A DNA stretch of 64,000 nucleotides from IMG/VR virus record IMGVR_UViG_3300043409_001877, positions 77,495 through 141,494 of that record, one strand, 5' to 3'. Source of the stretch: a virus. Shown one piece after another: positions 10,377 through 25,808 of this stretch; within the stretch, counting starts at the first letter, position 1, and every line of letters begins with the position of its first letter. A program made the translations under genes and the position numbers. The notes beneath the pieces are model-generated. The model had not been told where the DNA came from, searched no databases, and saw only the letters and a list, made by a program, of their open reading frames with translations.

Positions 10377-12158
10377 ATGAACATACCAATAGAAAAAAAA
10401 GCATTAGATATATTAAAAGAATACAAAGGTAATAATGATTATATTTTAGGCATACAAAATGATTATTTTAAAGCCAAATCATTCATACCAACAAAAAAAC
10501 AATCAGAATATATTGTAAGATTTGGTAATATCGATTCAGTTGTTGTTAACAAATATGTTGAAGTACAAAGGTCTTGCAGAGAATTTGTTCAAATTCAATT
10601 ATGTTTACTATCACAACCAGAAAAGATTTTTATAAATAAGTTACTTTCTAGAAGAGGCGATTTACTTCATATTTGGGGATGTTTTGGTGATGATTGCAAA
10701 AATTACCAAGGGATATTCATCGCAAAAGAATGTATTAAAAAAAATAAAGAAATCCCTAATATTGATTTTAGTAAGTATGAGCGTGATCCTAAACCTCACC
10801 AAATTACAGCGATTAATAAATTATTAATTAACGATAAGTACATACTAGCTGACGACATGGGTTTAGGTAAAACTACGTCTTCTATTATCGCAGCAATGGA
10901 AGGTAATTTTAAAAAGATATTAGTTGTTTGTCCAGCCTCATTAAAACTTAATTGGAAAAAAGAAATTATGAATTACGATAGGGTTGAAAACATATCTATC
11001 GTGGACTCTGGTGATTTTAGAGTTAATAAATGGACTATTGTTAATTATGATATTCTTAAAAACTTTCACCACCTACCACAAAGAGGTGTTAAGATGTCTG
11101 ACTTACCAGTGTCCCCAATTGACTTTCATAAATTTGATTTAGTTATTGCGGATGAAGCGCATTACCTAAAAAACTCAACATCTAATAGAACCAAGATATT
11201 TAACGATTTTGCTTCTAGAATTGAAAATCGTTGGCTTTTAACTGGTACCCCCATTACAAATAAACCTATTGATTTTTATAATTTATTATTTTTATGCGAC
11301 TCACCAATTGCAGCCAATTGGGTTCATTATGTTAGACGTTATTGCGCTGGTAGGCAATTCAACAGAAAAGGTACAAAGCAAAAATATTGGATGACATCTG
11401 GGGCTTCTAATTTAGATGAGCTTAGAGATTATGCTACTGACGTTATGTTAAGGAGAACTAAAAAAGACTCAATTGATTTACCACAAAAAACAATCAAGCC
11501 AGTTTATTTACCAATGGAATATTCAATCAGCTATAACACATATTTAAAGGAATACCAAGACTGGGTTGATAGTACCGAAGGACAGGAAGAGAAACCAAAG
11601 ATTAGTGATCACTTAACTAAATTAATAAAAATACGTCAGTTACTATCAAACGATAAAATTGAACACACTATCAAATTAGCTGAAGATTTAATTGAAAACG
11701 ACAAAAAGGTTATTATATTTAGTTGCTTTACCCAAACAATAAACGCAATACACGAACACTTTGGTAAGAGTTCTGTTATTATTGACGGTTCTGTTTCATC
11801 AAAAAATCGTGATCTTGCCGTTGAAAAATTTCAAAACGATGATAAGATTAAAGTATTTTGTGGTAACATAGTTGCCGCTGGGGTTGGTTTGACATTAACA
11901 GAAGGTAGTATTGTTATCTTTAATGATTTAGATTGGGTTCCAGCTAATCACGCACAAGCTGAAGATAGAGCGCACAGAATGGGTCAAGATAAACCAGTTC
12001 ATATTATATATCCACTGTTTGATGAAACTTTAGACGTTTTAATGTTCCAATCGTTACAAAGAAAAATGAAAATTATTACTCAGGTTATGGGCGATAGTAC
12101 AGAAGTTGATGATACTTCTGTTGGGCGTGAAGTTATTGGTAATTTAATGAAACATTAA
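10377..12158 (+). CDS. SNF2-family helicase/ATPase
   Basis: LADDMGLGKT, DEAH, LTGTP, GVGLTLT and QAEDRAHRMGQ. Confidence 0.92.
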   Translation: MNIPIEKKALDILKEYKGNNDYILGIQNDYFKAKSFIPTKKQSEYIVRFGNIDSVVVNKYVEVQRSCREFVQIQLCLLSQPEKIFINKLLSRRGDLLHIWGCFGDDCKNYQGIFIAKECIKKNKEIPNIDFSKYERDPKPHQITAINKLLINDKYILADDMGLGKTTSSIIAAMEGNFKKILVVCPASLKLNWKKEIMNYDRVENISIVDSGDFRVNKWTIVNYDILKNFHHLPQRGVKMSDLPVSPIDFHKFDLVIADEAHYLKNSTSNRTKIFNDFASRIENRWLLTGTPITNKPIDFYNLLFLCDSPIAANWVHYVRRYCAGRQFNRKGTKQKYWMTSGASNLDELRDYATDVMLRRTKKDSIDLPQKTIKPVYLPMEYSISYNTYLKEYQDWVDSTEGQEEKPKISDHLTKLIKIRQLLSNDKIEHTIKLAEDLIENDKKVIIFSCFTQTINAIHEHFGKSSVIIDGSVSSKNRDLAVEKFQNDDKIKVFCGNIVAAGVGLTLTEGSIVIFNDLDWVPANHAQAEDRAHRMGQDKPVHIIYPLFDETLDVLMFQSLQRKMKIITQVMGDSTEVDDTSVGREVIGNLMKH

Positions 12159-13307
12159 GAATGAATATTGGACATCCCCTCTTTGAGCACCAATATCACC
12201 TTCACCTTTAGGTGCTACCATTATATTATACTCTAATGGATTACCTTTTGGTTTTGCTAAAAACTCATCATACGTTAAAATAGAATTAACATCAACACCA
12301 TATTCATCAGACAACCTTTGTTTAAGAGTTTGAGCACCATTTTCATCTTTATAAATTAACTTACCTTTATCATCCACTTGATAACTAGGGTTTTTGCCTG
12401 ATGTTGTTTTAAGGAATAAATCATCAAACATACTTTTTGGTACAGTAACAGCTTGTTTTTTACCTTTAATATCTTTTATTTTGTTAAGCTCTCTTTTATT
12501 AGCGTCTGTTGAAAAGTTTACAATCATATCATCATCATTGAAATTAATGATATCACCCATTTTAGTATAAGCATATGATTTTATGTTATAACCTTCAGCT
12601 TTTAAATTTTTTGTAATATTAAGGGCGATTTGATGATATTTCTTAGTAAAAAAATCACCCGCATCATTCCATCTAAATTGTATTTCTTTAGTTGGGTTTT
12701 TTAATGCGATTATTTCAAGCTCATGCTTTAATAATTTTTCAAATCTTTCAGGATAATTTAATAATAAATTTAATATTCTTGTTTGTTTAACAAACACATC
12801 TGGAAACATAACATAACTACCTTTTCTAGCATAACAAATCATAGCACACGTACCAGCACCAGGACAAGTGTTTACAATATAAAACTTTTGGTCATCAATA
12901 TCATAAACTAAACCACGTAAAGCTGGAATACCAATATTTACAGAAAATGAGTTATCTGTTTTAGATTTCTCCATCTTCATATTAATACTCAATAAATCAT
13001 TTGGCATTGCTGTTATCTTTTTAATGAACCCATCAACATCAATACCACCCTCTTCATCAAACGGGATAGTTTTTGCGTGAATGTATGGTTTATCTAAAGC
13101 TAATTTTTCACGATCAGACGGTTTTTCTTCACTATTCTTAACAATACCGTTTAAATATTCTTTTAGACCATTTGGGTCGATACATTTTTTAGATACATCA
13201 CTAAATTCATTCCAGTCAATTTCGCTTAAAGTAAATGGATTATCTAAAATACCAGCATTTCTTCTAATTTTATTTAAAGTTTCGTTTAAAGTTATTTTTT
13301 TATTCAT
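12144..13307 (-). CDS. Gp88-like Cys-motif (radical-SAM-like Fe-S) protein
   Basis: TCPGAGTCAMICYARKG (Cx5Cx3C), FRWNDAGDF and YAYTK. Confidence 0.65.
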   Translation of the reverse strand: MNKKITLNETLNKIRRNAGILDNPFTLSEIDWNEFSDVSKKCIDPNGLKEYLNGIVKNSEEKPSDREKLALDKPYIHAKTIPFDEEGGIDVDGFIKKITAMPNDLLSINMKMEKSKTDNSFSVNIGIPALRGLVYDIDDQKFYIVNTCPGAGTCAMICYARKGSYVMFPDVFVKQTRILNLLLNYPERFEKLLKHELEIIALKNPTKEIQFRWNDAGDFFTKKYHQIALNITKNLKAEGYNIKSYAYTKMGDIINFNDDDMIVNFSTDANKRELNKIKDIKGKKQAVTVPKSMFDDLFLKTTSGKNPSYQVDDKGKLIYKDENGAQTLKQRLSDEYGVDVNSILTYDEFLAKPKGNPLEYNIMVAPKGEGDIGAQRGDVQYSFLMFH

Positions 13308-13340: not shown

Positions 13341-14429
13341 ATGAGAATAAATCCAGAAGAAAAGCAAAAAATATACAAACAAGCCAAACACAGGCTTGGC
13401 GCTCCAATTAGAAAAATTCAATTGGAAGAGGAGCAAATGGATAGTTTGTTAGAAATTGCTACTGAAGACTATGTTGAGTACATTCAAAATTATATTACTG
13501 AACACCAATGGCCCGCTTTAATTAGTTTGGATATTACTGAAGCTGATTTAACAAGAGCTTTTATCACTAGAGGGCAAGACTTTGTAACTCAATACACTTA
13601 TTCTTATTCTAAAATTGTTGGTTTGGGTGCTGGTGAAGGTGGTTTTGTTCTCAAAAAGGATTATGTTGAACTTAAAAGAAATGTTCAGATATATGAAATA
13701 CCAGCTAATCGTGAAATTAATGAGGTATTATGGTTTACACCATCAACAATAGACCAATCAATTATCGATCCATTTATTGGTGTTTGGAGTAATAACTTTG
13801 GTGGTGAGTATATTGGTTTAGGTAGTTATTATATTATGCCAGCTTTTGATATATTAATGAGAGCAGCTGATAGAAATTTAAAAAATAGATTAATTAAATC
13901 AGAGTTAATTTATAAAGTAACCAATGCTCCAGATGGTAAGAAGTTCTTACATTTAATGAACACCCCAGGTAGTAATTTTGATTTCAGAGGTTCATTATTT
14001 GCACAAGGTAAAGTATGGTATTGGTATTATGATATTAATGGTAATAAAGATGAGTGTTTACAAAAAAATAAAGATATTATTAAATCACCAGCTGACGTTC
14101 CATTTGATAATATGTCATTTGATGATTTAAATGAACCATCTAAAGTGTGGGTTAGACGTTATTTTATCGCTTTAGCTAAGGAAACATTAGGTAGAGTTAG
14201 GGGTACTTTTGGTGGTAAAATACCAGTCCCTGACGCAAATATGGAAATAGAATATCAATCACTATTATCAGAAGGTAAAGATGAAATGGTTACATTAAAA
14301 AAAGAATTGGAAGAAAGATTGGCTAGATTAAGCCCTCTTGAAATTCTTAAACGTGTATCAGAAGAGGCTACTTATGTTAATACATCATTAAAATTTAGAG
14401 CATTCCAAAAACCAATTAAAATTATTTAA
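13341..14429 (+). CDS. Neck protein (T4 gp13-like head-tail adaptor)
   Basis: RLGAPIRKIQLEEEQM at the N-terminus; WVRRYFIALAKETLGRVRG.F and LLSEGKDE at the C-terminus. Confidence 0.8.
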   Translation: MRINPEEKQKIYKQAKHRLGAPIRKIQLEEEQMDSLLEIATEDYVEYIQNYITEHQWPALISLDITEADLTRAFITRGQDFVTQYTYSYSKIVGLGAGEGGFVLKKDYVELKRNVQIYEIPANREINEVLWFTPSTIDQSIIDPFIGVWSNNFGGEYIGLGSYYIMPAFDILMRAADRNLKNRLIKSELIYKVTNAPDGKKFLHLMNTPGSNFDFRGSLFAQGKVWYWYYDINGNKDECLQKNKDIIKSPADVPFDNMSFDDLNEPSKVWVRRYFIALAKETLGRVRGTFGGKIPVPDANMEIEYQSLLSEGKDEMVTLKKELEERLARLSPLEILKRVSEEATYVNTSLKFRAFQKPIKII

Positions 14430-14432
14430 TAT

Positions 14433-14762
14433 ATGGCAAATTATAGAACAAGAATTGATTTAAGTAGACAGGCTGAAGTAAAAGAATTAACTTACGCTGA
14501 ATTGTCTGATAATATTGAAGAGGGTAAAACTATCCTATATAAAAAAGAAGATGGTGCTCTTGGTGTCGCCTCAAAGTATAGTGGCGTAATCTACACTGGT
14601 TACACTGGTGGTGATGTTATGCGTGGTTTAACAATACCAGAATTACCAGCATCATTTCCTGGTGCGAATAAAGCTCACGTGTTATCCATGGTACAATTTG
14701 GTGTCGTTCCTATTATAAGGTGGGCTCTGGTTGATACTGATGGCGATTTTAACGAATTATAA
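14433..14762 (+). CDS. Small virion protein, paralogue of the N-terminus of the next gene
   Basis: Shares DLS.QAE, FPG..KA and W.LVDTDG.FN with 14768..16435. Confidence 0.7.
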   Translation: MANYRTRIDLSRQAEVKELTYAELSDNIEEGKTILYKKEDGALGVASKYSGVIYTGYTGGDVMRGLTIPELPASFPGANKAHVLSMVQFGVVPIIRWALVDTDGDFNEL

Positions 14763-14767
14763 AAAAT

Positions 14768-16435
14768 ATGTCAATTACAGGTTCAACATTAGATTTAAGT
14801 AAACAAGCGGAATTAACAACATTAACAGACGGTCAGTTAGATGATATTGCTGATGGTAGTGCTATTATATACAGAAAAGAAAGCGAAAATGCTGATAATT
14901 TAATATTTGGTTTACTTGAATCATACCCAGCCCTTGGTTTTGCTAGTAAAAACGGTACTATTACGGATTTACCATACCCTGGCACAGAAATTAAAGGCTT
15001 AATAGTTCCACCAATACCAAACACTTTTCCTGGTGATGACAAAGCCTATGCATTAGGTCTTGTGGAGGTTTTTGGTGAATTTAAATTAAAATGGGTTCTG
15101 GTTGATACTGATGGTAATTTTAATAGAGTTCCACCTTCATATTATTATACAACACGCAGTGCGGCTGTATGTTATAATTATGTTGCCACTTTAAACGATT
15201 TATTTCTTAATGGATCATTACTAGTACAAATTTACGGATGGGATGTTAACACACCCAAAAAGTATAGTATAGATGGTGGTAGTACATTTAGTGGTATTGT
15301 CACAGAACAGTACGATGGTGGTAATTTATCTTATTTTACCATATCAAATTTAGGAACAACAAACCCAACAGGTCAAACAATTGATTTAGTTATTACCGAT
15401 TCTGATGATAATATATTATACCCAAACGAGTATTCGGCAACAGGAACAACTATTATCGCCTCACCCGTATATGAAGTTTTAAGTTCATTTGAAGGTTTAG
15501 ATAATAATGGTTCATTTGATGTTAATTTAATTAAACTCCAAGATAATTCATTAACAAGCGATGGTGTAATGGAAGTAGTAGTTACCGATATTCAGATTGG
15601 ATGTCAATATTATTATGAAATTTGGGATTACAACACTTCTACGCTTTTGTTTTATCGAGATTATTCAACCTCAAAAACCTATCAATTTGGTGTCTATACT
15701 GGGTCTACAGAATTATTTGCCATTGTTTCTAAAAAAACACCAGGTATAATTACCATAGAAGGTATTGATAGTAATGGTGATACGTTTAAAGATATTGAAC
15801 ACTACTCATTACTGTATTCAAAAGGAGATCCAAATCCAGCTAATTTTGTTAATGTAACACCTGAAATGGGTTACACCGATATAAATTACACGCCAAGTGA
15901 AGCCAATGGTGTACAAGAATTGTACATGCAAAGATATGGATATGATTGTATTTATAAAAAAGTAACAAACTTTACACAAGTTGATAATTCAGTTACAACA
16001 ACTCAGATGTTAATGTTAGATTATACTGGTGATTCCATCAATAGCTTTATATTTGATTCTCCAGTTATTGGAAATATAACTGTTAACACACCATTAAACC
16101 CAAATACTTATTTTAACCCAGTTCAGATAAAAGCGGCTGCTTTTGGCGGTGGGTCTTCTATAATACTTTCGTACACTTTCTTAGGTTCCCCATCAACAGG
16201 TGATACTAATGAAATATTATTTTATGATGCGGTTAGTGGTCAACCAATATTAACCGCTGGAGTCCAAACAGCAACTACAACACCTGGAGGTTATGTTACA
16301 ATTGATCTTAAATACCTAACTTATTGGACTAATAACTCAGGGCAGTCAATTATGATTAGATTCAAGTATACAAATGTTACCACATCTGGTGGTAGAACTT
16401 ATTATTCCGATTTAATACACATAAAAAATGATTAA
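14768..16435 (+). CDS. Putative fibre/whisker or decoration protein
   Basis: T/S/G/Y-rich beta-type composition, YSIDGG motif, next to the neck gene. Confidence 0.55.
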   Translation: MSITGSTLDLSKQAELTTLTDGQLDDIADGSAIIYRKESENADNLIFGLLESYPALGFASKNGTITDLPYPGTEIKGLIVPPIPNTFPGDDKAYALGLVEVFGEFKLKWVLVDTDGNFNRVPPSYYYTTRSAAVCYNYVATLNDLFLNGSLLVQIYGWDVNTPKKYSIDGGSTFSGIVTEQYDGGNLSYFTISNLGTTNPTGQTIDLVITDSDDNILYPNEYSATGTTIIASPVYEVLSSFEGLDNNGSFDVNLIKLQDNSLTSDGVMEVVVTDIQIGCQYYYEIWDYNTSTLLFYRDYSTSKTYQFGVYTGSTELFAIVSKKTPGIITIEGIDSNGDTFKDIEHYSLLYSKGDPNPANFVNVTPEMGYTDINYTPSEANGVQELYMQRYGYDCIYKKVTNFTQVDNSVTTTQMLMLDYTGDSINSFIFDSPVIGNITVNTPLNPNTYFNPVQIKAAAFGGGSSIILSYTFLGSPSTGDTNEILFYDAVSGQPILTAGVQTATTTPGGYVTIDLKYLTYWTNNSGQSIMIRFKYTNVTTSGGRTYYSDLIHIKND

Positions 16436-18014
16436 GACCGAACTAGAATATGGCACATATTATGATTTTATCGTAACAAAAGACGATAGAGTATCAACTA
16501 GAGATTATAATTCTTTAAAGTTATTTTATATTGATGTAACTGAAGATCTTTGTACTACAATTGGTCTTAAACAAAGTGAAGATGTTATATTAAAAAACAT
16601 ATCATTAAATGGTTATGATAATTATTTCATACATTTTGGTAATGGTACAATCGATCCAGAAATTGAATATGTTGTATCAAAAGACGATACGTTTTGTTTA
16701 CATGAAGTATCTGGCTATACTAAAAATTTAAATTACGATATTATACCAAAACTAGGGTATAATCAACTTTCTGGTGGTTTTTATCAAGGGTTTTTTAAAT
16801 TACATGAATACCCAGTTGAGTTTATGCCAAATAGAATGAGAAAAGGGTGGACAACAAATATGATGTTACATTTACCAACTCTAGGTTATGGCGTTAACGC
16901 TACTAGTGGTACAACATTAAATGATGTGTTTAATAATCCAGGCTTTATTTATTATTTGGGTACTAGGGCTGAAAACAAATATTCAGATTTAACACCTATT
17001 GAGGTTAATATATTAAAAAATGATTACTTATTTACGTTTGTTGATATTGATAATCAGTACACTAGAATTGGCACGTACCAATTAGATGGTATACCATATG
17101 AAGGTTATTTTTACATTAAAGATGGTATACCTCACGCTGGTAGAAATGAATTAGATTTAACCATAACAGGTGATACTCAATTAACTTATTTCAATAAGTA
17201 TAAAGATGTTATCGATAATTCTTTTGGTGTTAGGATAACCCCAGATGGTAGAATTGGTTATAGAAAAATATACGCTACAGACCCTTGTTATACTGGCGCA
17301 ACACAAGAAGTTAGCGGTATTACTACCAATTCATTTGTTGATTTTACTCAGGACTGCGATAACTTTACCATGGGTAAAATTATAACAAAATATTTTACAA
17401 TTGAAGATTCATATACTAAATGTTCGGTAATTTCAGACCAAGAACAAATATTAGTAAACGAAGGTAGTGACGTACCAGATGATTCAACTTACATATTATT
17501 TCAAGATGGGAATATTTGGTCAGCTCAAGATGATAGTTTAATAATTTACTCTAGCAAACCAAAGGACAAGTATGTTTATGTTACAGTAACATTTGAAAGG
17601 GATTTTAGTTATGATACAAAGTGTGATTTAACTTATGGTGATTATAAAAACGGAACATTAACAATTAGTTTAAATGGTTTTACGGTTTATAGGAATCGTA
17701 ATTTTAAAGAGGTAATACCGCATGAATTAGATACCGAAGCAAAATACCAAGAAGGTGTACCATTTAATATATCATTTGGTGGTGGCTCCCAAGGTTTATA
17801 CGAGGCAATTTATTTAGACCCGAATAAAACAGTAGATGGTATTATTGATAAATTCTTCGCTGGTACATTTAATGGTGGTGTTAAATTTATTGAAATGTAT
17901 TCTGTACCTTTGTATATTACAGAAGTTAGAGATATTATACAAAATAACTTACAAAATTACAATTTGTACCGACCAAAAGGTGGTAGAAGAGTATTTATAA
18001 AAAACCAAATATAA
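16428..18014 (+). CDS. Putative virion structural protein (LamG-like C-terminus)
   Basis: GGFYQGFFKL, GVPFNISFGGG and FAGTFNGGVK..MYS.PL; structural context. Confidence 0.5.
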   Translation: MIKTELEYGTYYDFIVTKDDRVSTRDYNSLKLFYIDVTEDLCTTIGLKQSEDVILKNISLNGYDNYFIHFGNGTIDPEIEYVVSKDDTFCLHEVSGYTKNLNYDIIPKLGYNQLSGGFYQGFFKLHEYPVEFMPNRMRKGWTTNMMLHLPTLGYGVNATSGTTLNDVFNNPGFIYYLGTRAENKYSDLTPIEVNILKNDYLFTFVDIDNQYTRIGTYQLDGIPYEGYFYIKDGIPHAGRNELDLTITGDTQLTYFNKYKDVIDNSFGVRITPDGRIGYRKIYATDPCYTGATQEVSGITTNSFVDFTQDCDNFTMGKIITKYFTIEDSYTKCSVISDQEQILVNEGSDVPDDSTYILFQDGNIWSAQDDSLIIYSSKPKDKYVYVTVTFERDFSYDTKCDLTYGDYKNGTLTISLNGFTVYRNRNFKEVIPHELDTEAKYQEGVPFNISFGGGSQGLYEAIYLDPNKTVDGIIDKFFAGTFNGGVKFIEMYSVPLYITEVRDIIQNNLQNYNLYRPKGGRRVFIKNQI

Positions 18015-18418
18015 TGATTTTTACAATTAGACAAAATTCAAAATTACCATCATTACGAATGAAATTATATCGTGATGGTAGAAATGATTATAATCGTTTC
18101 GAGGATTTATTAGAAAACTCAGTTATAACCTTTGCGATGAAAGATGAAAAAACTGGCATTTATAAGGTTGCTAATAAAGAAGCTAAAATTATTTTAAAAG
18201 ATCCTTGTGATATTAATAGTAAAAAAGAGTATTATATTGTATATGATTTTACAATTGACGATACCAATAAACCTGGTATATATTTAGGTCAATTCAAGGT
18301 AACTTTTTTAAATGATTGTATGCAAACAAACGGAGATTTAATAGTCCCTATTTCTGAGGAATTGTACATCCATGTTATTGATAGTTTTATCAAAAGCGAC
18401 ATAAAATACATCAATTAA
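18014..18418 (+). CDS. BppU-like Ig-fold structural protein
   Basis: FTIRQN..LP.L..ITFAM..Y.F...DT..PG.Y.GQFKVTF..LIVP pattern. Confidence 0.55.
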   Translation: MIFTIRQNSKLPSLRMKLYRDGRNDYNRFEDLLENSVITFAMKDEKTGIYKVANKEAKIILKDPCDINSKKEYYIVYDFTIDDTNKPGIYLGQFKVTFLNDCMQTNGDLIVPISEELYIHVIDSFIKSDIKYIN

Positions 18419-18514: not shown

Positions 18515-21500
18515 ATGAGTGAATATAAAATCCCTATTGAAGAAGTTGAGAAGTTTTTATTAGGTCATGATGATGAAAAGTATATCGTAAATATAGAATA
18601 CGATAACAAGACCAACTTAATTTATAAATTTAAACAGTTACCTGATGGTACAAAAACCACAGAAAAGGAACCACTTAAGGCGTTTCTATGGATGAAGAAT
18701 TTAAACACTCTTAAAGAAAGGTTTAATTTCTATGACAACAATACCTTAAAAATTAAGTTAGCTAGAGAACAATATGGTATTGAAATCAAATCATTGGATC
18801 ATGGTGACCATGAAAGATTGGTAGATGGTTACAAATATTTACTAACTTGCGACCAGGGATATGATAGAATGTTAGAATTCTTTAGAAAGGGTGGTTTTTA
18901 CAGGGGGATATACGATAAAACAAACGATATTAATACAAATTTTATAATTTTACCACCCGTTGAACAGTACTTGGTATCAACTGGTAAGAGATTATATAAA
19001 GGTTACGAAGATTATAACGATATTGAAAAGTTTGTATTTGACTTAGAGACAACTGGTTTAGACCCTGAAACATCAAGGATATTCTTAATTGGTTGTAAGA
19101 CAAATAAAGATTTTGAGGTATTATTTGACTGCGAAACTGAGGGTGAAAATGCTGATGCCACTGAAGTTGCAGCTATTGCTAAATTCTTCGCTGCAATAGA
19201 TTATATAAAACCCGCTATCATTGGTGGTTATAACAGCGCTAACTTTGACTGGAATTTTATTTTTAAACGTTGTGAAAAGTTAGGTGTGGATATTGAATCT
19301 CTGGCTAAAACATTAAAAGAAGATTCTAAAATTACAAACAAAGACCAGATAATTAAATTAGGTGGGGATGTTGAAAAGTTCACTCAAACAAATATGTTTG
19401 GTTACTCTGTTATTGATATTATACATGCAACACGTAAAGCCCAAGCCATTGATTCTAGTATGAAATCAGCGGCTTTAAAATATGTTTGTAAATATAATAA
19501 AATTGCAAAAAAGAATCGTGTTTATATTAAAGGAGATAAGATTGGTTCATATTGGAAAACCAATAAAGATTATTATTTTAATAATATAACTGGGTTATAT
19601 TGCGAAAAAAAACCAAGTATTATTACTATGGATGTTATTACTAGGGATTATGTTAAAAACAATCCCGATATGGTCTTTATTTTTGGTGATAATGATGAAA
19701 GAGAGGGTATGGGTGGTCAAGCTAATGAAATGCGTGGTGAGCGCAATTCTATTGGAATACCAACCAAGAAAAAACCAAGTACAACAGATGATTCGTATTA
19801 TACTGATTCCGAATTTGAATTAAATAAAAAGAAAATTAATTATTCAGTTAATTTAATTTTAACTCAAATTAATAATGGTAAAACAATTGTATTACCAAGT
19901 AATGGTATTGGCACTGGGTTAGCACAATTAAAAGAAAAGGCACCCAAAACATTTTCTTTCTTAGAGGCTACCATAAAAGCTATGTATGATTATGTTAATA
20001 AATTTGAAGTTGTTAATGGTGAGTACATTGTTAAACGGTATTTAATGGATGATTTATGGGAAACCGCTGAAATTGATAATGTATACAACCAATCATCTTT
20101 CATGTTAGCCAAGATGATTCCAACAACATACCAAAGGGTATCAACTATGGGTACGGCTGGTTTATGGAAAATGATTATGATTACATGGTCATATGAAAAT
20201 AATTTAGCACTACCAACGCAAGACGATAAACGTGACTTTGTTGGTGGTTTATCTAGATTATTAAAAGTTGGGTTTTCAAAGAATCTAAGGAAGATGGACT
20301 TTAATTCACTATACCCAGCTATTCAATTAGCTCATGATATATTCCCAAGTGTTGATATTACTGGTGTAATGAAGTCATTATTAAAATACTTTCACTCCGA
20401 ACGTTTTAAAGCTAAAGATTTAGCTAAACAATATAAAAAACAAGGTAATCATCAACTTGAATCACTATATAAACGTAAACAATTACCTTTAAAGATATTC
20501 ATTAACTCAATGTTTGGTGCATTGGGTGCCCCAAATGCTTTCCCTTGGGCTGAAATAAACATTAGTGAACAGATTACATGTACCGCAAGACAATATCTTA
20601 GGTTGATGGTTAAATTCTTTATTAAGAAAGGGTATCAACCAACTGTATTAGATACGGATGGGGTTAACTTTATGGCACCTGATAACGGTGAGAGTGAATT
20701 TGTTTACATAGGTAAGGGTAATAATGATGAGGTTGAAGCTGGTAAAGAATATCGTGGTGTCTATGCGGTTGTAGCAGAATTCAACGATCTTTATATGAAA
20801 GGTGAAATGGGATTGGGTTTAGATGGTATGTGGCCCGCAACTATTAATTTAGCCAGAAAAAATTATGCGTTATTGGAAGATGATGGTAGCATTAGTTTAA
20901 CTGGTAATACTATTAAATCTAAAAAAATGCCAGTTTACATTGAAGAATTTTTAGATAAAGGTTTGGTTCTTTTATTAAATGATAAAGGTTACGAGTTTGT
21001 TCAATATTATTATAAGTACGTTGATTTAATTCATAACAAAAAAATACCATTGGCTAAAATAGCCACAAAGGCTAGGGTTAAAAAAACAATATCTCAATAT
21101 ACTAATAGAGGTATGAATAAGAACAACAAACCATTACCAAAACAAGCCCATATGGAATTGGCTATTAAACACAACTTACAAGTCAATCTAGGTGATACAT
21201 TGTATTATGTTAATGTTGGCACTAAAAAGTCTCATGGTGACGTTAAAGAAGATAAAAACGGTAAGATATATGGTGAATTAATTGAAGCTTCTATTATTGA
21301 ATCAGCACCAGATACATTAGGGGAGTACAATATTGAAAAATATTTATCAATGTTTAACTCAAGGATTAAAGGTTTACTGGTTCTTTTTGACCTTGAGGTT
21401 AGAAATAAAATATTAATAAACAAACCCGAAGATAAAAAAAGTTGGATGATGTCAGAACTAGAATTAGTTAATAATCAACCAAGTAAAGAGGGTGATCAAG

Positions 21501-21681: not shown

Positions 21682-22212
21682 ATGGATAAGGATATTAATG
21701 AATTTGTAAGCGCTGATGGTGGTCTAATTAGTAGTAAAGTACCAAATGTTGACCCAAAAACAACAGCTGCTACAACTACCGATAAGAGTATGCGAATGAG
21801 GGCTCAACCCTTTATGTACACAGTTTATAGACGTTTTTTTAGTGAAGGTGAATTACCTCACACCAAAAAAGCTGATGAAATGAAGAATGACCCAAAAGGG
21901 TTCCATGATTATTTGAAATCAATTAAAGAAGGTGATGCGTTTGAGAGTTATTTCCAAAAAGATGATTCACCTGAGGCTAAATTAAAAGAAATTAGTAGAT
22001 CTAAGGCTTATGATATGATGGAAACATTATTATCTAACAGAACTAACACTATTGATGTTATAAGAAAAACCCCAGTAACTATTGATGAGATTAAAAATAA
22101 AGAAATTTTATTGGTTGATAAATTAACTAAAATAGCTGAAACCATCAAAGAATTAATGTCTGAAGATGAAAAGAAAGTTATTTTATCATACTTTGGTGAA
22201 AAAATAAGATAA
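21682..22212 (+). CDS. Hypothetical protein (late operon)
   Basis: 176-aa ORF, translationally coupled to the next gene. Confidence 0.7.
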   Translation: MDKDINEFVSADGGLISSKVPNVDPKTTAATTTDKSMRMRAQPFMYTVYRRFFSEGELPHTKKADEMKNDPKGFHDYLKSIKEGDAFESYFQKDDSPEAKLKEISRSKAYDMMETLLSNRTNTIDVIRKTPVTIDEIKNKEILLVDKLTKIAETIKELMSEDEKKVILSYFGEKIR

Positions 22213-22679
22213 TGTCAAACTCTAAATTAATAGGTAAACAATTCCCCGTACCAGATAAGGTATTAAAGGAACTTGGTATAAATCTAAAGAAATTTTCTGA
22301 TAAAAGAAATTCTAAAGGTTTTAACCGAGCTATCTTTATTTTAGAAAGACGTGCATGTACTTATGAACAATTAAAAAGAATTAAAAATTATTTTGATTGT
22401 GTTAATGATGAAAATTACAATGATATTGAATATTTATTAAATGGTGGTGAAGTTATGAAAAAATGGGTTGATTTTACGTTAGACCAAGCTAGAAAAAGTG
22501 TTCACGGAACTAAAAGTGCTAGAAAAAACGCTGGAATGGAAAATCAATTTAGATCTGACTCTGAAGAAACTGTAAATGCGGTTACACCAGAATTAAAAAG
22601 TACTCCATCATTTATGTCAACATCAGACTTAATGGAAGAATTAAATATAATAAAAGAAATAACAAAAAAATTAAACTAA
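22212..22679 (+). CDS. Hypothetical protein
   Basis: 155-aa ORF containing TYEQLKRIKNYFD..LNGG..MKKWV. Confidence 0.7.
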   Translation: MSNSKLIGKQFPVPDKVLKELGINLKKFSDKRNSKGFNRAIFILERRACTYEQLKRIKNYFDCVNDENYNDIEYLLNGGEVMKKWVDFTLDQARKSVHGTKSARKNAGMENQFRSDSEETVNAVTPELKSTPSFMSTSDLMEELNIIKEITKKLN

Positions 22680-22680
22680 A

Positions 22681-22947
22681 ATGGCAGACGCAGTTAGAAT
22701 CCCAGCATCAGAACAACTAAGAACAGTTGCAGTTGCGGAAAGAGAAGGTAAACTAATACCTATTAACGAATATAAACCAACATCTTTTGAATATGGGGCT
22801 TCAAATCCAAACGCATTAAGTGATGGTGATGAAAAAGGTAAAGGTGAATTAGCTACTATTGGTAGTAGAACCGATATTATAACAAGAAACAGTTTATTTG
22901 GTGTGAATCAGTATACTCAAACAGCACAATATACAACACCAGAATAA
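22681..22947 (+). CDS. Hypothetical small protein (possibly virion)
   Basis: 88-aa ORF containing NPNALSDGDEKGKG. Confidence 0.7.
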   Translation: MADAVRIPASEQLRTVAVAEREGKLIPINEYKPTSFEYGASNPNALSDGDEKGKGELATIGSRTDIITRNSLFGVNQYTQTAQYTTPE

Positions 22948-22965
22948 CTTTACATTCATTTTTAT

Positions 22966-23523
22966 ATGACTATTATTGAAAATGCAGGTGATGATAAACT
23001 GGAAATGCTAAGATATGCAATCAAAAACAAATATGCGATTACATTCTGGTATAAAGGTGTTAAAGTCAGCGATCCAAATAACAAAAAATACACGAAACAA
23101 AATTTTAGACGTGTAGAACCTTTTGCGTTAGGTAAAAGTGCCGCAACTGATAAATGGATGCTAAGAGCTTACCAATTTCAAGGTGTTACCAACACCAAGA
23201 ACGATGCTTGGAAAACTTTTCTTGTAGATGAAATAAAAGACGGTAGTGTTCAAATAGTTTATGATAACACTGGGACTCAATTAAAAACAATTGATAGTCC
23301 AAGATCAAACTATAGAACGGATGGTTCAGATAAAAAAATGGCTGTAGGTAGTATTAAAGATTTTTTAAAGACCAGCGAACCAGCTGGTAATAAAGATCCT
23401 AAATACGCTAACATAAAGTATAAGGGTGATAAACCTGAAATTGAAAATAAACCAGAAGAAGAGATTCAGTTAACTGAATCTTCTGGGTTTTTAAAATGGG
23501 TATTAAAATTAAATAATGGATAA
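22966..23523 (+). CDS. WYL-domain-like protein
   Basis: AIKNKYAITFWY..RRVEPFALG..LRAYQ..WKTFLVDEI. Confidence 0.65.
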   Translation: MTIIENAGDDKLEMLRYAIKNKYAITFWYKGVKVSDPNNKKYTKQNFRRVEPFALGKSAATDKWMLRAYQFQGVTNTKNDAWKTFLVDEIKDGSVQIVYDNTGTQLKTIDSPRSNYRTDGSDKKMAVGSIKDFLKTSEPAGNKDPKYANIKYKGDKPEIENKPEEEIQLTESSGFLKWVLKLNNG

Positions 23524-24079
23524 TAAAGATAAAGCTAGTATAATAGCGCAAGGTATTGCAAATGCTAGAAAAGTAATGGAAAAAGTTGAGGGTGGTTTAG
23601 TTAAATCGTCTAATAACACAGTTAGAGGTTTAAGTGAATCAGATGTTGATCGTATGTTAGACAATGACGCTGTAAATTATATGACAGAAAGAAAAGTCCA
23701 ACAACCAACTGCGGCTTCAAACATGAGAAATTTACATAAATCAAAAATGCCTGCGGATATCTTGAAATCGTTTCAAGAAAACCCAATCATTGATCCAACA
23801 GCCCCAGTGGGTATGGAGAGTATAATGCAAGAAATAACAAAAAAAGCAGCTCCTATGGAAGAAGTTGTTAAAAAAGTTATAACAGAAACCCAACAAGCAC
23901 CTCAATTAGATGCTAAATTAATTGAATTTATAATTAAAAAAACAGTAGAGGAAACCTTGGAACAAGTTAGTAAAAGAACAGCTATCGATGAAACGATTCA
24001 AATAAAAATTGGTGATAAAACATTTGGTGGTAAATTAACTGTGTTAAAAGAAAATAAAATAAACGAAAATAAAAAGTAA
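23516..24079 (+). CDS. Hypothetical protein
   Basis: 187-aa ORF with SKMPADILKSFQENPI and IQIKIGDKTFGG. Confidence 0.7.
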   Translation: MDNKDKASIIAQGIANARKVMEKVEGGLVKSSNNTVRGLSESDVDRMLDNDAVNYMTERKVQQPTAASNMRNLHKSKMPADILKSFQENPIIDPTAPVGMESIMQEITKKAAPMEEVVKKVITETQQAPQLDAKLIEFIIKKTVEETLEQVSKRTAIDETIQIKIGDKTFGGKLTVLKENKINENKK

Positions 24080-24083
24080 AATT

Positions 24084-24248
24084 ATGACAAAAGAAAAAGT
24101 ATTAGGAATTGTAAGACACGTATTAACATTTGTTGGTGGTGTGTTAGTGGCAAAAGGTTTAGCTACAGACGTTATGTCTAATGAATTAATTGGTGCAGCC
24201 ATGACATTAGTTGGTGGCGTGTGGTCAATCATATCAAAAAATAAATAA
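24084..24248 (+). CDS. Small two-TM membrane protein, putative holin (not in the ORF track)
   Basis: MTKEKVLGIVRHVLTFVGGVLVAKGLATDVMSNELIGAAMTLVGGVWSIISKNK; fills the gap between genes exactly and has a basic C-terminus. Confidence 0.7.
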   Translation: MTKEKVLGIVRHVLTFVGGVLVAKGLATDVMSNELIGAAMTLVGGVWSIISKNK

Positions 24249-24265
24249 TTAAAAAAATTAAACAA

Positions 24266-24454
24266 ATGAGTAATAACATAATTACATTTTGCAAACAAAA
24301 ATGTTGCCCAGTAATTGAGATTCAAGGTAACGATATCATTTTAGGCGACAAAGAAGGGCCTGAAGGAATTACCACATGGAGTAAAAATCAATTTGCTGAC
24401 TTTGTTGAGGCAGCTAAAGAAGGTAAATTTGATCAAATTATCAAACAAAATTAA
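24266..24454 (+). CDS. Small protein, DUF397-like
   Basis: CCPVIEI..IILGDKEGPEG..W...QFADFVEAAKEGKFD. Confidence 0.5.
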   Translation: MSNNIITFCKQKCCPVIEIQGNDIILGDKEGPEGITTWSKNQFADFVEAAKEGKFDQIIKQN

Positions 24455-24474
24455 AAATAATAAATTAACTAATT

Positions 24475-24506
24475 AACGGTAATTATAACTAATTGCCGTT
24501 TTTTTT
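24475..24506 (+). terminator. Intrinsic terminator
   Basis: AACGGTAATTA-taac-TAATTGCCGTT followed by a T-run. Confidence 0.75.
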
Positions 24507-24530
24507 GTTCCTATTTTTTTAGGATTTGCA

Positions 24531-24562
24531 CTTGTTTTTTTGATATAATTTTACTATTATTG
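24531..24562 (+). promoter_or_regulatory. Host-type promoter heading the glycosylation region
   Basis: CTTG-N20-TATTATTG. Confidence 0.6.
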
Positions 24563-24581
24563 GGTAAAACATATACATATA

Positions 24582-25808
24582 ATGTCAAAAATTAAAATAT
24601 TAGTAGCACCAGGTGATAGAGCTGGTTCAGGTAAATTTAGATGTGTAGATCCCCATGTCAATTTACAAAATAACTTTTCTAGCGATTATTTCGTTGATAT
24701 TAATCACAATATTGATTTCAGTGACGTTAATTACCTTAAAAATTATGACGTTGTGTTTATTCATAGAATACCACAACATAGAAATAAAGAAGCCGTTGAT
24801 ATTATTAACAGAATTAAAAAGTTAGGTATTAAGGTTATTGTTGATACAGATGATCATTGGAATTTAGACCCATCTCATGGCTTGTATGCTATGGCTAAAA
24901 GAGATAATATACCTGGAACTATATTAGATTGTATTAAATTAGCTGATTTGGTTACCGTACCAACAGAAATTATTGCAAAAGAAGTTTCAAAATTCAATAA
25001 AAATGTTGTAGTTTTGCCAAACGCTATTGATCCAAATGAAGAACAATTTAAACCAAAACCGATTAAGTCAGATTTGATTAGATTTGGGTGGTTAGGTGGT
25101 TCATCACATGTTAAAGATATTGAATTACTACGTGGAATTGGCTCTACTCAAAAATCTATCAGTGAAAAATCTCAGATAGTTTTATGTGGGTTTGATACTA
25201 GAGGAACCGTACAATCGATCAATCCAAATACTAATCAGGTAGAACAAAGACCAATGAATCCACAAGAAACAACTTGGTTTATGTATGAATTATTTTTAAC
25301 AAATAACTATAAAAATTTGGAGCATGATAAAGATTATTTAACTTATTTGGTTAGCTTTGCCGATGACCCATCTTATGATTCAACAAATAAACCATATAGA
25401 AGAATTTGGACTAAAGCTATTAATCAATACGCTAATGGTTATAATAGTTTTGATGTGGCTTTGGCACCATTAAATGATAGTGATTTTAATAAGTACAAAT
25501 CTCAATTAAAAGTAATTGAGGCTGGGTTTCATAAGAAGGCTTTAATTGCTCAAAACTATGGCCCTTACACCATTGATTTGATTAACGCTATTAATAAAGG
25601 TGGTGAATCTAACCCAGATGGTAATTGTTTATTAGTTGATACAGCTAAGAACCATAAACAATGGACTAAGTACGCTAAAAAATTAGCTGATAGCCCACAA
25701 ATGGTTATTGATTTAGGTGAAAAATTATATGAAACCGTTAAAGATAAATATGATTTAAATAATGTAACAAAATTAAGAAGTGAAATTTATAAAAATTTAG
25801 TAAAATGA
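24582..25808 (+). CDS. Glycosyltransferase (GT-B, GT4-like)
   Basis: VDTDDHW, VLPNAID, GWLGGSSH and DVALAPL..FNKYKSQLKVIEAG. Confidence 0.85.
   Translation: MSKIKILVAPGDRAGSGKFRCVDPHVNLQNNFSSDYFVDINHNIDFSDVNYLKNYDVVFIHRIPQHRNKEAVDIINRIKKLGIKVIVDTDDHWNLDPSHGLYAMAKRDNIPGTILDCIKLADLVTVPTEIIAKEVSKFNKNVVVLPNAIDPNEEQFKPKPIKSDLIRFGWLGGSSHVKDIELLRGIGSTQKSISEKSQIVLCGFDTRGTVQSINPNTNQVEQRPMNPQETTWFMYELFLTNNYKNLEHDKDYLTYLVSFADDPSYDSTNKPYRRIWTKAINQYANGYNSFDVALAPLNDSDFNKYKSQLKVIEAGFHKKALIAQNYGPYTIDLINAINKGGESNPDGNCLLVDTAKNHKQWTKYAKKLADSPQMVIDLGEKLYETVKDKYDLNNVTKLRSEIYKNLVK

Follow-up and report, generated by a model that had tools for sequence, protein, structure and literature searches.

The macrodomain of DarG, from the DarTG2 toxin-antitoxin system (PDB 5M3I, 5M3E), and human TARG1 (4J5S, 2L8R) belong to the ALC1-like class, the members of which share the ability to reverse the attachment of ADP-ribose (ADPr) to thymidine (PMC9411070, PMC8501950). 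The substrate of DarT is single-stranded DNA (ssDNA; PMC5179494) and, within DarG, the catalytic residue is K80 (PMC9411070, PMC13309987). Phages also use erasers, in the form of the orphan DarG-like protein AdfM and the NADAR protein AdfN (PMC13309987, PMC11825919), and escape from DarTG2 through point mutations in the phage DNA polymerase is cited in PMC13309987. The subject of this report is a 64,000-nucleotide stretch of viral DNA, referred to as the window (positions 77,495 to 141,494 of IMG/VR record IMGVR_UViG_3300043409_001877), which encodes a family B DNA polymerase (PolB) with an additional domain of the DUF7831 family nested within its proofreading exonuclease. Amongst characterised proteins this insert resembles the DarG/TARG1 class most, of which it is probably a very remote and reduced derivative, and it is put forward as a candidate for a phage-borne DarG-like eraser in a polymerase-embedded, minimal form, a novelty that depends on biochemical proof.

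As with AdfM, the insert is phage-borne, lacks a toxin and is found at the site of phage DNA replication, where it is a candidate eraser. AdfM (PhiKZ gp104, the orphan DarG2-like macrodomain of the chimalliviruses; PMC13309987) is, however, a canonical stand-alone macrodomain with demonstrated activity that is imported into the phage nucleus, whereas the insert is a divergent embedded mini-domain that is fixed to the polymerase and has candidate status only. The polymerase-based escape from DarTG2, as it is cited there, likewise ties the replicative polymerase to the tolerance of ADP-ribosylated templates, but does so through point mutations and presumed read-through rather than through an added domain. 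In comparison with DarG and TARG1, both of which have six strands, the insert has four, and it lacks both the C-terminal strand and a segment of about 33 residues that separates loop 1 from the lysine strand. Archaeal family B polymerases contain a uracil ‘read-ahead’ pocket in their N-terminal domain, which only senses the base and stalls. The best PDB matches of an AlphaFold (AF2) model of the full-length phage polymerase (pLDDT 88.6) are archaeal PolBs, headed by KOD (4k8z, E 1.4e-28) and including 2VWJ and 7OMG, and by analogy only the two have in common an archaeal-type scaffold and the inspection of template bases ahead of synthesis by the polymerase itself. The insert differs in forming a separate unit of the exonuclease domain that would chemically reverse the lesion.

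The host gene encodes an intact family B DNA polymerase with a 3'-5' exonuclease, in which all six exonuclease and polymerase motifs are kept (Table 1). The original prediction had placed an extra domain of about 130 residues (aa 366-497) between ExoII and ExoIII, limits that are confirmed by the translation and by the positions of the motifs, and the strings that it named were found at their places (FGDNDEREGMGGQA at 390-403, PTK at 416-418, PSNGIGTGLA at 461-470, the ExoII motif and YLMDD). By profile comparison the segment is a full-length member of Pfam DUF7831 and of PHROG 2072. It matches the Pfam model with an E-value of 3e-45 over positions 3-117 of 118, scoring 148 bits within the whole protein and 153 bits on its own against a cut-off of 27. 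The family is thus already catalogued and is widespread outside polymerases, although Pfam describes no function for it. Within the library of papers searched, no publication on DUF7831 or on a macro-like insert in a phage polymerase was found, and the family is absent from reviews that cover viral NAD/ADPr systems or jumbo phages.

Alignment with related PolBs bore out the expectation of a true insertion with a patchy distribution within the polymerase clade. Relatives of about 940 aa have only some 19 residues at the equivalent position, and the nearest PolBs of cultured phages, from Salinibacter and Anabaena/Nostoc phages, align as two separate segments, leaving the insert out. In G+C content (0.27-0.31) the insert does not differ from the remaining polymerase gene. 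The full-length model suggests that it forms a separate, confidently predicted fold between strands 352-355 and 498-501, directly before the ExoIII helix. A Pfam scan of the polymerase gave no intein and no homing-endonuclease family, in agreement with the earlier claim that such features are missing from the insert. In a related PolB of 1392 aa (P0169) the same scan picked up an intein (Intein_splicing, LAGLIDADG_3) in another part of the sequence, showing that it is able to detect them.

The family as a whole is large, with an exhaustive HMMER search returning 2116 clusters (at 50% identity) that match DUF7831 at E <= 0.001. Of the best 150 matches, 41 are stand-alone proteins of <=170 aa, whilst 53 matches have lengths of 171-400 aa and 25 are longer than 3000 aa, the domain being usually internal in these last. 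Stand-alone forms are encoded by cultured phages, namely the phiCbK-like Caulobacter phages and phages of Rhizobium, Sinorhizobium and Agrobacterium, and the domain is also found in giant viruses (Tupanvirus, Hyperionvirus, Yasminevirus) and in crAss-like phages. The insert shares its invariant residues with the stand-alone phage and giant-virus proteins of around 130 aa, from which it differs in being nested within the exonuclease domain of a replicative PolB. Across 152 DUF7831 domains, and with the numbering of the polymerase, D392, N393, G398, N411, G414 and P477 are conserved in 100%, G391, G401, K418 and G466 in 99%, A403, R407 and D431 in 98%, G468 in 96% and P461 in 94%. Such a pattern points to an enzyme or to a specific ligand pocket.

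Three conserved segments make up the candidate active site. The stand-alone insert gives an AF2 model of four strands and five helices with a pLDDT of 96.9 and a pTM of 0.89, and the five best solved matches of this model are all TARG1 or DarG macrodomains (Z 7.3-6.5). Profiles were compared by hhalign, with 152 DUF7831 domains on one side and, on the other, a DarG set composed of DarT-adjacent genes from Acidobacteriota genomes and 120 database homologues named DarG or Macro. Locus L015 of genome G050 was left out of alignment A2, and this genome enters only two tallies, one of them being that for DarT given below. The comparison scored 24.4 (P 0.0023, probability 12.5%), pairing IPTK, which contains K418, with the FPTK of DarG, which contains K80, and VLPSNGIGTGLAQL with IAIPPLGxGLGGL. 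None of 200 column-shuffled DarG alignments reached this score (shuffle mean 13.7, sd 3.0). The predicted role of K418 as a candidate catalytic lysine of the DarG/TARG1 type is supported by its placement on K80 and by its near-invariance, at the level of sequence only, and the same limit applies to its agreement with the ALC1-like hallmark of a lysine that ends the central strand (DarG K80, TARG1 K84). The prediction of two macro loops was supported for the second, in that GIGTG aligns with the second glycine loop of DarG; for the first, the spacing from N to A in motif 1 equals that of DarG N22...G30.A32, an equivalence suggested by eye and by collinearity only. On the authors' reading, the secondary-structure elements of the insert are collinear with those of TARG1 and DarG once these are stripped of their last strand and of the helix-strand unit that lies between loop 1 and the lysine strand.

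Further indications come from the proteins to which DUF7831 is joined, as deduced from Pfam scans of multidomain members (Table 1). These include helicases of the RecD/Pif1 type, an AlkB-type oxygenase, sigma-70 regions and, judging from the order of the Pfam domains in P0133, an XRN-type 5'-3' exonuclease, which is a second and independent case of DUF7831 nested within a nuclease. The arrangement of P0031 is that of a polyvalent, virion-packaged effector (PMC9503650). Pfam showed no second domain in two giant members of the family, which measure 4052 and 4397 aa. Metagenomic contigs with stand-alone members gave no information, being too short. Of 401 Acidobacteriota genomes, 7 contain stand-alone DUF7831 genes. 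Nine loci, spread over six Acidobacteriota genomes, have the gene in a co-directional cluster in which a single-stranded DNA-binding protein (SSB; 133-136 aa) is followed by DUF7831 (about 130 aa), a protein of 538-559 aa, a second SSB (142-147 aa) and RNase H. The genes upstream of this cluster vary and include TIR_2 and a GHKL ATPase, the 538-559-aa protein has no match in Pfam, the PDB sequences or the ESM Atlas, and the whole may be a mobile-element or ssDNA-entry module. No DarT-like or DarG-like open reading frame (ORF) occurs within about 4 kb of the stand-alone Acidobacteriota genes. The shared theme is that DUF7831 is attached to proteins that bind to or move along nucleic acids, notably ssDNA.

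Table 1. Positions of the polymerase, its insert and associated features, with DUF7831 architectures and loci in other proteins and genomes (nucleotide positions without a prefix are those of the window)
Feature	Position	Strand	Remarks
Family B DNA polymerase gene, host of the insert, 1040 aa	18515-21637	+	Pfam DNA_pol_B, DNA_pol_B_exo1, RNase_H_2; PHROG 262
ExoI motif FDLET, aa 175-179	19037-19051	+	F175, D176, E178, T179 invariant in 30 relatives
ExoII motif GYNSANFD, aa 238-245	19226-19249	+	F244, D245 invariant in 30 relatives
Nested DUF7831 domain, aa 366-497	19610-20005	+	PF25176, PHROG 2072; 132 residues, stop-free translation; Pfam match aa 371-485 = nt 19625-19969
Motif 1, FGDN-x4-G-x-GGQA, aa 390-403, candidate macro loop 1	19682-19723	+	Conservation; equal spacing
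PTK, aa 416-418, candidate catalytic lysine K418	19760-19768	+	hhalign with DarG FPTK (K80)
P-x2-GIGTGLA, aa 461-470, candidate macro loop 2	19895-19924	+	Aligns with DarG PPLGCGLGGL and MacroD FPAISTG
ExoIII motif YLMDD, aa 509-513	20039-20053	+	Y509, L510, D512, D513 invariant in 30 relatives
Polymerase motifs A DFNSLYP 595-601, B KIFINSMFG 660-668, C DTDG 713-716	20297-20662	+	Invariant columns in 30 relatives
ORF near the polymerase	10377-12158	+	
ORF near the polymerase	12144-13307	-	
ORF near the polymerase	13341-18418	+	
ORF near the polymerase	21682-25808	+	
NADAR-like match, same virus record, outside the window	G000:C1:8668-8976	-	E 0.006, 13 bits; one internal TAA
Stand-alone NADAR protein, related record with insert (L161)	G307:C1:3925-4362	-	E 7e-52
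P0031			AAA_33 kinase - DUF7831 - UvrB_inter - MuF
P0030			DUF7831 - RecD/Pif1-type helicase
P0036			NADAR-like stretch (27 bits, below cut-off 35.1) - DUF7831 - RecD/Pif1-type helicase
P0025			Sigma-70 regions 3 and 4 - DUF7831
P0076, P0094			DUF7831 - cpYpsA
P0023			YpsA - DUF7831 - DUF488-N3a
P0097, P0125			DUF7831 - DUF488-N3a
P0114			AlkB-type 2OG-Fe(II) oxygenase directly before DUF7831
P0133, 693 aa			XRN_N (1-234) - DUF7831 - XRN_M (508-689)
SSB-DUF7831 cluster, loci L174-L182	e.g. L177:850-4894	-	Genomes G114, G309, G327, G362, G378, G386
phiCbK DUF7831 gene gp136 (L021)	JX100813.1 108898-109347		

From these observations a mechanism can be proposed. Within the proofreading domain, DUF7831 caps a beta-hairpin that directly precedes the ExoIII helix. 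Its pocket would be built from FGDN...G.GGQA, PTK (K418) and GIGTG and would bind the ADP-ribosyl group that a modified base carries. The lysine K418, acting like K80 of DarG, would then promote the cleavage of the ADP-ribosyl group from the nucleic-acid base. Being mounted on the exonuclease domain, the activity would be exerted in cis on the single-stranded template or on the primer end handled by the polymerase. The most probable target would be ADP-ribosyl-thymidine put on ssDNA by host toxins of the DarT2 type, the block to replication being avoided by its removal. An anti-DarT function of the insert is plausible, and the specific proposal that it erases DarT2-type ADP-ribosyl-thymidine in cis for the polymerase, as a counter-defence, has a chance of being correct that falls just short of even. 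Held more tentatively is the broader idea that DUF7831 is a minimal ADP-ribosyl-nucleic-acid hydrolase, which may have been joined repeatedly to PolB, XRN, RecD/Pif1 helicases, AlkB and SSB operons and which would make the polymerase self-sufficient at clearing the modified thymidine ahead of synthesis.

The domain is an orphan rather than an antitoxin, since the DarT model (PF14487) matched neither this record nor any of three related ones, of which one is 100% complete, whilst the same hidden Markov model (HMM) matched in 19 of 301 Acidobacteriota genomes. The arrangement is likewise not that of a DarTG toxin-antitoxin pair, as the 132-aa insert has no DarT-binding C-terminal domain and no DarT gene is adjacent. 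Neither a DUF7831 nor a Macro gene is present in four insert-free relatives (139-270 kb, 46-88% complete). The complete 299-kb relative, which carries the insert, lacks Macro, NADAR and any further copy of DUF7831. One related record with the insert does encode a canonical stand-alone NADAR protein, NADAR being the domain type of AdfN, the anti-DarT1 factor of T4-like phages (PMC11825919). This survey of Macro and NADAR genes neither supports nor refutes a functional substitution for the insert. Separately, a NADAR-like match elsewhere in the same virus record is probably not significant.

The history of the insert was followed in a sample made up of the top ~120 database matches to the polymerase. 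About 70 of these, 49-98% identical overall, have all motif residues intact, about 11 have drifting motifs (for instance FGDN to Y-S/D-E-N, and GGQA to EQS), eight have an insert of similar length in which the motifs are destroyed (P0169, P0209, P0213, P0216, P0217, P0230, P0232 and P0233) and about 37 have no insert. In P0169 the degenerate insert still scores 58 bits despite the loss of its motifs. A FastTree tree, rooted only at the midpoint, was calculated from 872 polymerase columns after removal of those of the insert. Intact inserts fall on both sides of this root, the main insert-free clade of 34 sequences is sister to P0231, which has an intact insert, in a group nested in the larger tree, and decayed inserts occupy at least five separate positions. 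The simplest reading is a single old acquisition, making the insert ancestral in the polymerase clade, followed by repeated loss or decay. This implies that the polymerase functions independently of the insert motifs, and it fits an accessory activity that is only conditionally useful.

It could be argued from such decay, and from the large insert-free sister clade, that the motifs are dispensable and that the insert is a tolerated passenger or a structural element, such as a docking surface for the replisome, with no catalytic role here. This is very improbable, because this gene and around 70 relatives retain all of the family-invariant residues over a wide range of identities, the identical residues are invariant in the stand-alone proteins, and decay in some lineages is to be expected of a conditionally useful enzyme. 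A role connected to ADPr but different from the one proposed is rather unlikely, yet has substance. The domain could remove ADPr from DNA or RNA phosphate ends, from guanine or from a protein such as the polymerase itself, it could process soluble ADPr derivatives, or it could act as a non-catalytic sensor that governs switching between exonuclease and polymerase. Macrodomains of the TARG1 type accept several kinds of substrate (PMC9411070, PMC7050489), and phage macro-type domains mostly target soluble ADPr derivatives according to Aravind and colleagues (PMC9503650). The occurrence of DUF7831 inside an XRN 5'-3' exoribonuclease, for which a 5'-end adduct is an obvious obstacle, its fusions to cpYpsA/YpsA SLOG and DUF488-N3a domains, and its presence in giant viruses point the same way. 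Set against this, the near-invariant Lys, Asp and Asn favour catalysis over mere binding, and the repeated partnership with DNA-tracking proteins and SSB neighbourhoods favours substrates linked to polymers, especially ssDNA.

A more radical alternative is that DUF7831 is not an ADPr module at all but a small Rossmann-like enzyme with macro-like motifs acquired by convergence, acting on some other nucleic-acid adduct, a modified nucleotide or the deoxynucleotide pool. This too is unlikely. In its favour, all of the statistics that tie the family to macrodomains are weak, and several results weigh against the macrodomain interpretation. The structural Z-scores are below 8, a range that is possible for common arrangements, and generic Rossmann-like folds follow at Z <=5.5, with tetrapyrrole-methylase, P-loop kinase and MurE-type folds just 1-2 Z lower than the best matches. 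Foldseek returned no match of the model in the PDB at E < 0.1, no relevant PDB sequence was found by phmmer or hmmsearch, and the insert matches neither Macro (PF01661) nor any Macro, DarG or ADP-ribose HMM in Pfam, NCBIfam and PADLOC. When 36 family members were scanned against the same three collections at E <=10, no consistent second family emerged; one member matched Macro (E 0.16), one matched ‘ADP-ribose-binding protein’ (E 0.086) and none matched the PADLOC DarG models. The hhalign probability of 12.5% stands against 96% for a control comparison of DarG with MacroD by the same procedure (E 3.5e-9, 143 columns), and the divergence of DUF7831 greatly exceeds that between true macro classes. 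Moreover, only the loop-2 motif was aligned between DUF7831 and MacroD (E 0.056), and motif 1 was never aligned with macro loop 1, even in relaxed local mode. The sheet of the insert has four strands as opposed to the six-stranded mixed sheet of the macro fold (PMC9411070), its nearest neighbours in the ESM Atlas are unannotated phage proteins of the ‘A1S_2505 family’ (0.90, compared with 0.79 for Macro), and fusion to AlkB would fit any activity that reverses base damage. On the other side, the top five solved structures are all from a single functional subclass (TARG1, DarG), the alignment pairs two motifs, in the right order, with the catalytic lysine and loop 2 at a score that none of the 200 shuffles reached, and a NADAR-like stretch adjoins DUF7831 in P0036. 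The original assignment of a DarG/TARG1-like macrodomain therefore stands for the resemblance to exactly this subclass, which a confident model ranks best by Z, and is weakened as a class membership by the missing Macro match, the low scores and the reduced sheet.

A global mode of hhalign was also tried and gave a meaningless alignment. Readings of the domain as SLOG/LOG-like, from its G-x-GT motif and the YpsA fusions, or as UDG-like were set aside, which does not exclude them, as no SLOG, LOG, DprA or UDG structure was in the top 50 of either structural match list.

To our knowledge, the phage answers to DarTG are either separate proteins (AdfA, AdfB, AdfN, AdfM) or point mutations of the polymerase. 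If the proposed removal of ADP-ribosyl-thymidine in cis is correct, a lesion eraser in the proofreading domain would be a third phage solution and would introduce a new principle for replicative polymerases, that of repair in cis at the fork; it would be unprecedented for a replicative polymerase to carry its own domain for base-damage reversal as a counter-defence. It would also supply a function for DUF7831, a family of >2000 clusters (50% identity) that ranges over phages, giant viruses, polyvalent proteins and bacterial islands, and no smaller catalytic core of the macro type would be known. What counter-defence costs and what it yields could be studied in this one polymerase clade, where repeated loss and decay amount to a natural experiment. 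Even if it has no relation to ADPr, DUF7831 remains an enzyme with invariant residues that is joined to many nucleic-acid machines, and as such is worth assaying.

The source record is 141,494 bp in length with an estimated completeness of ~47%. A related virus record that is 100% complete measures 298,833 bp, which assigns the source virus to a jumbo-phage lineage, and metagenomes are so far the sole source of this lineage. A Pfam scan of eight other ORFs around the polymerase matched no family; the neighbours of the polymerase include a SNF2-family helicase and a Gp88-like protein. Amongst the cultured phages, the DUF7831 gene of phiM9 lies between small hypothetical genes, and that of phiCbK is found directly downstream of rIIA-like and rIIB-like genes. 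The phiCbK and phiM9 sites are early-gene regions, which give no direct clue to function. The tblastn matches on Ccr10 and CcrPW also overlap a gene annotated as RIIB.

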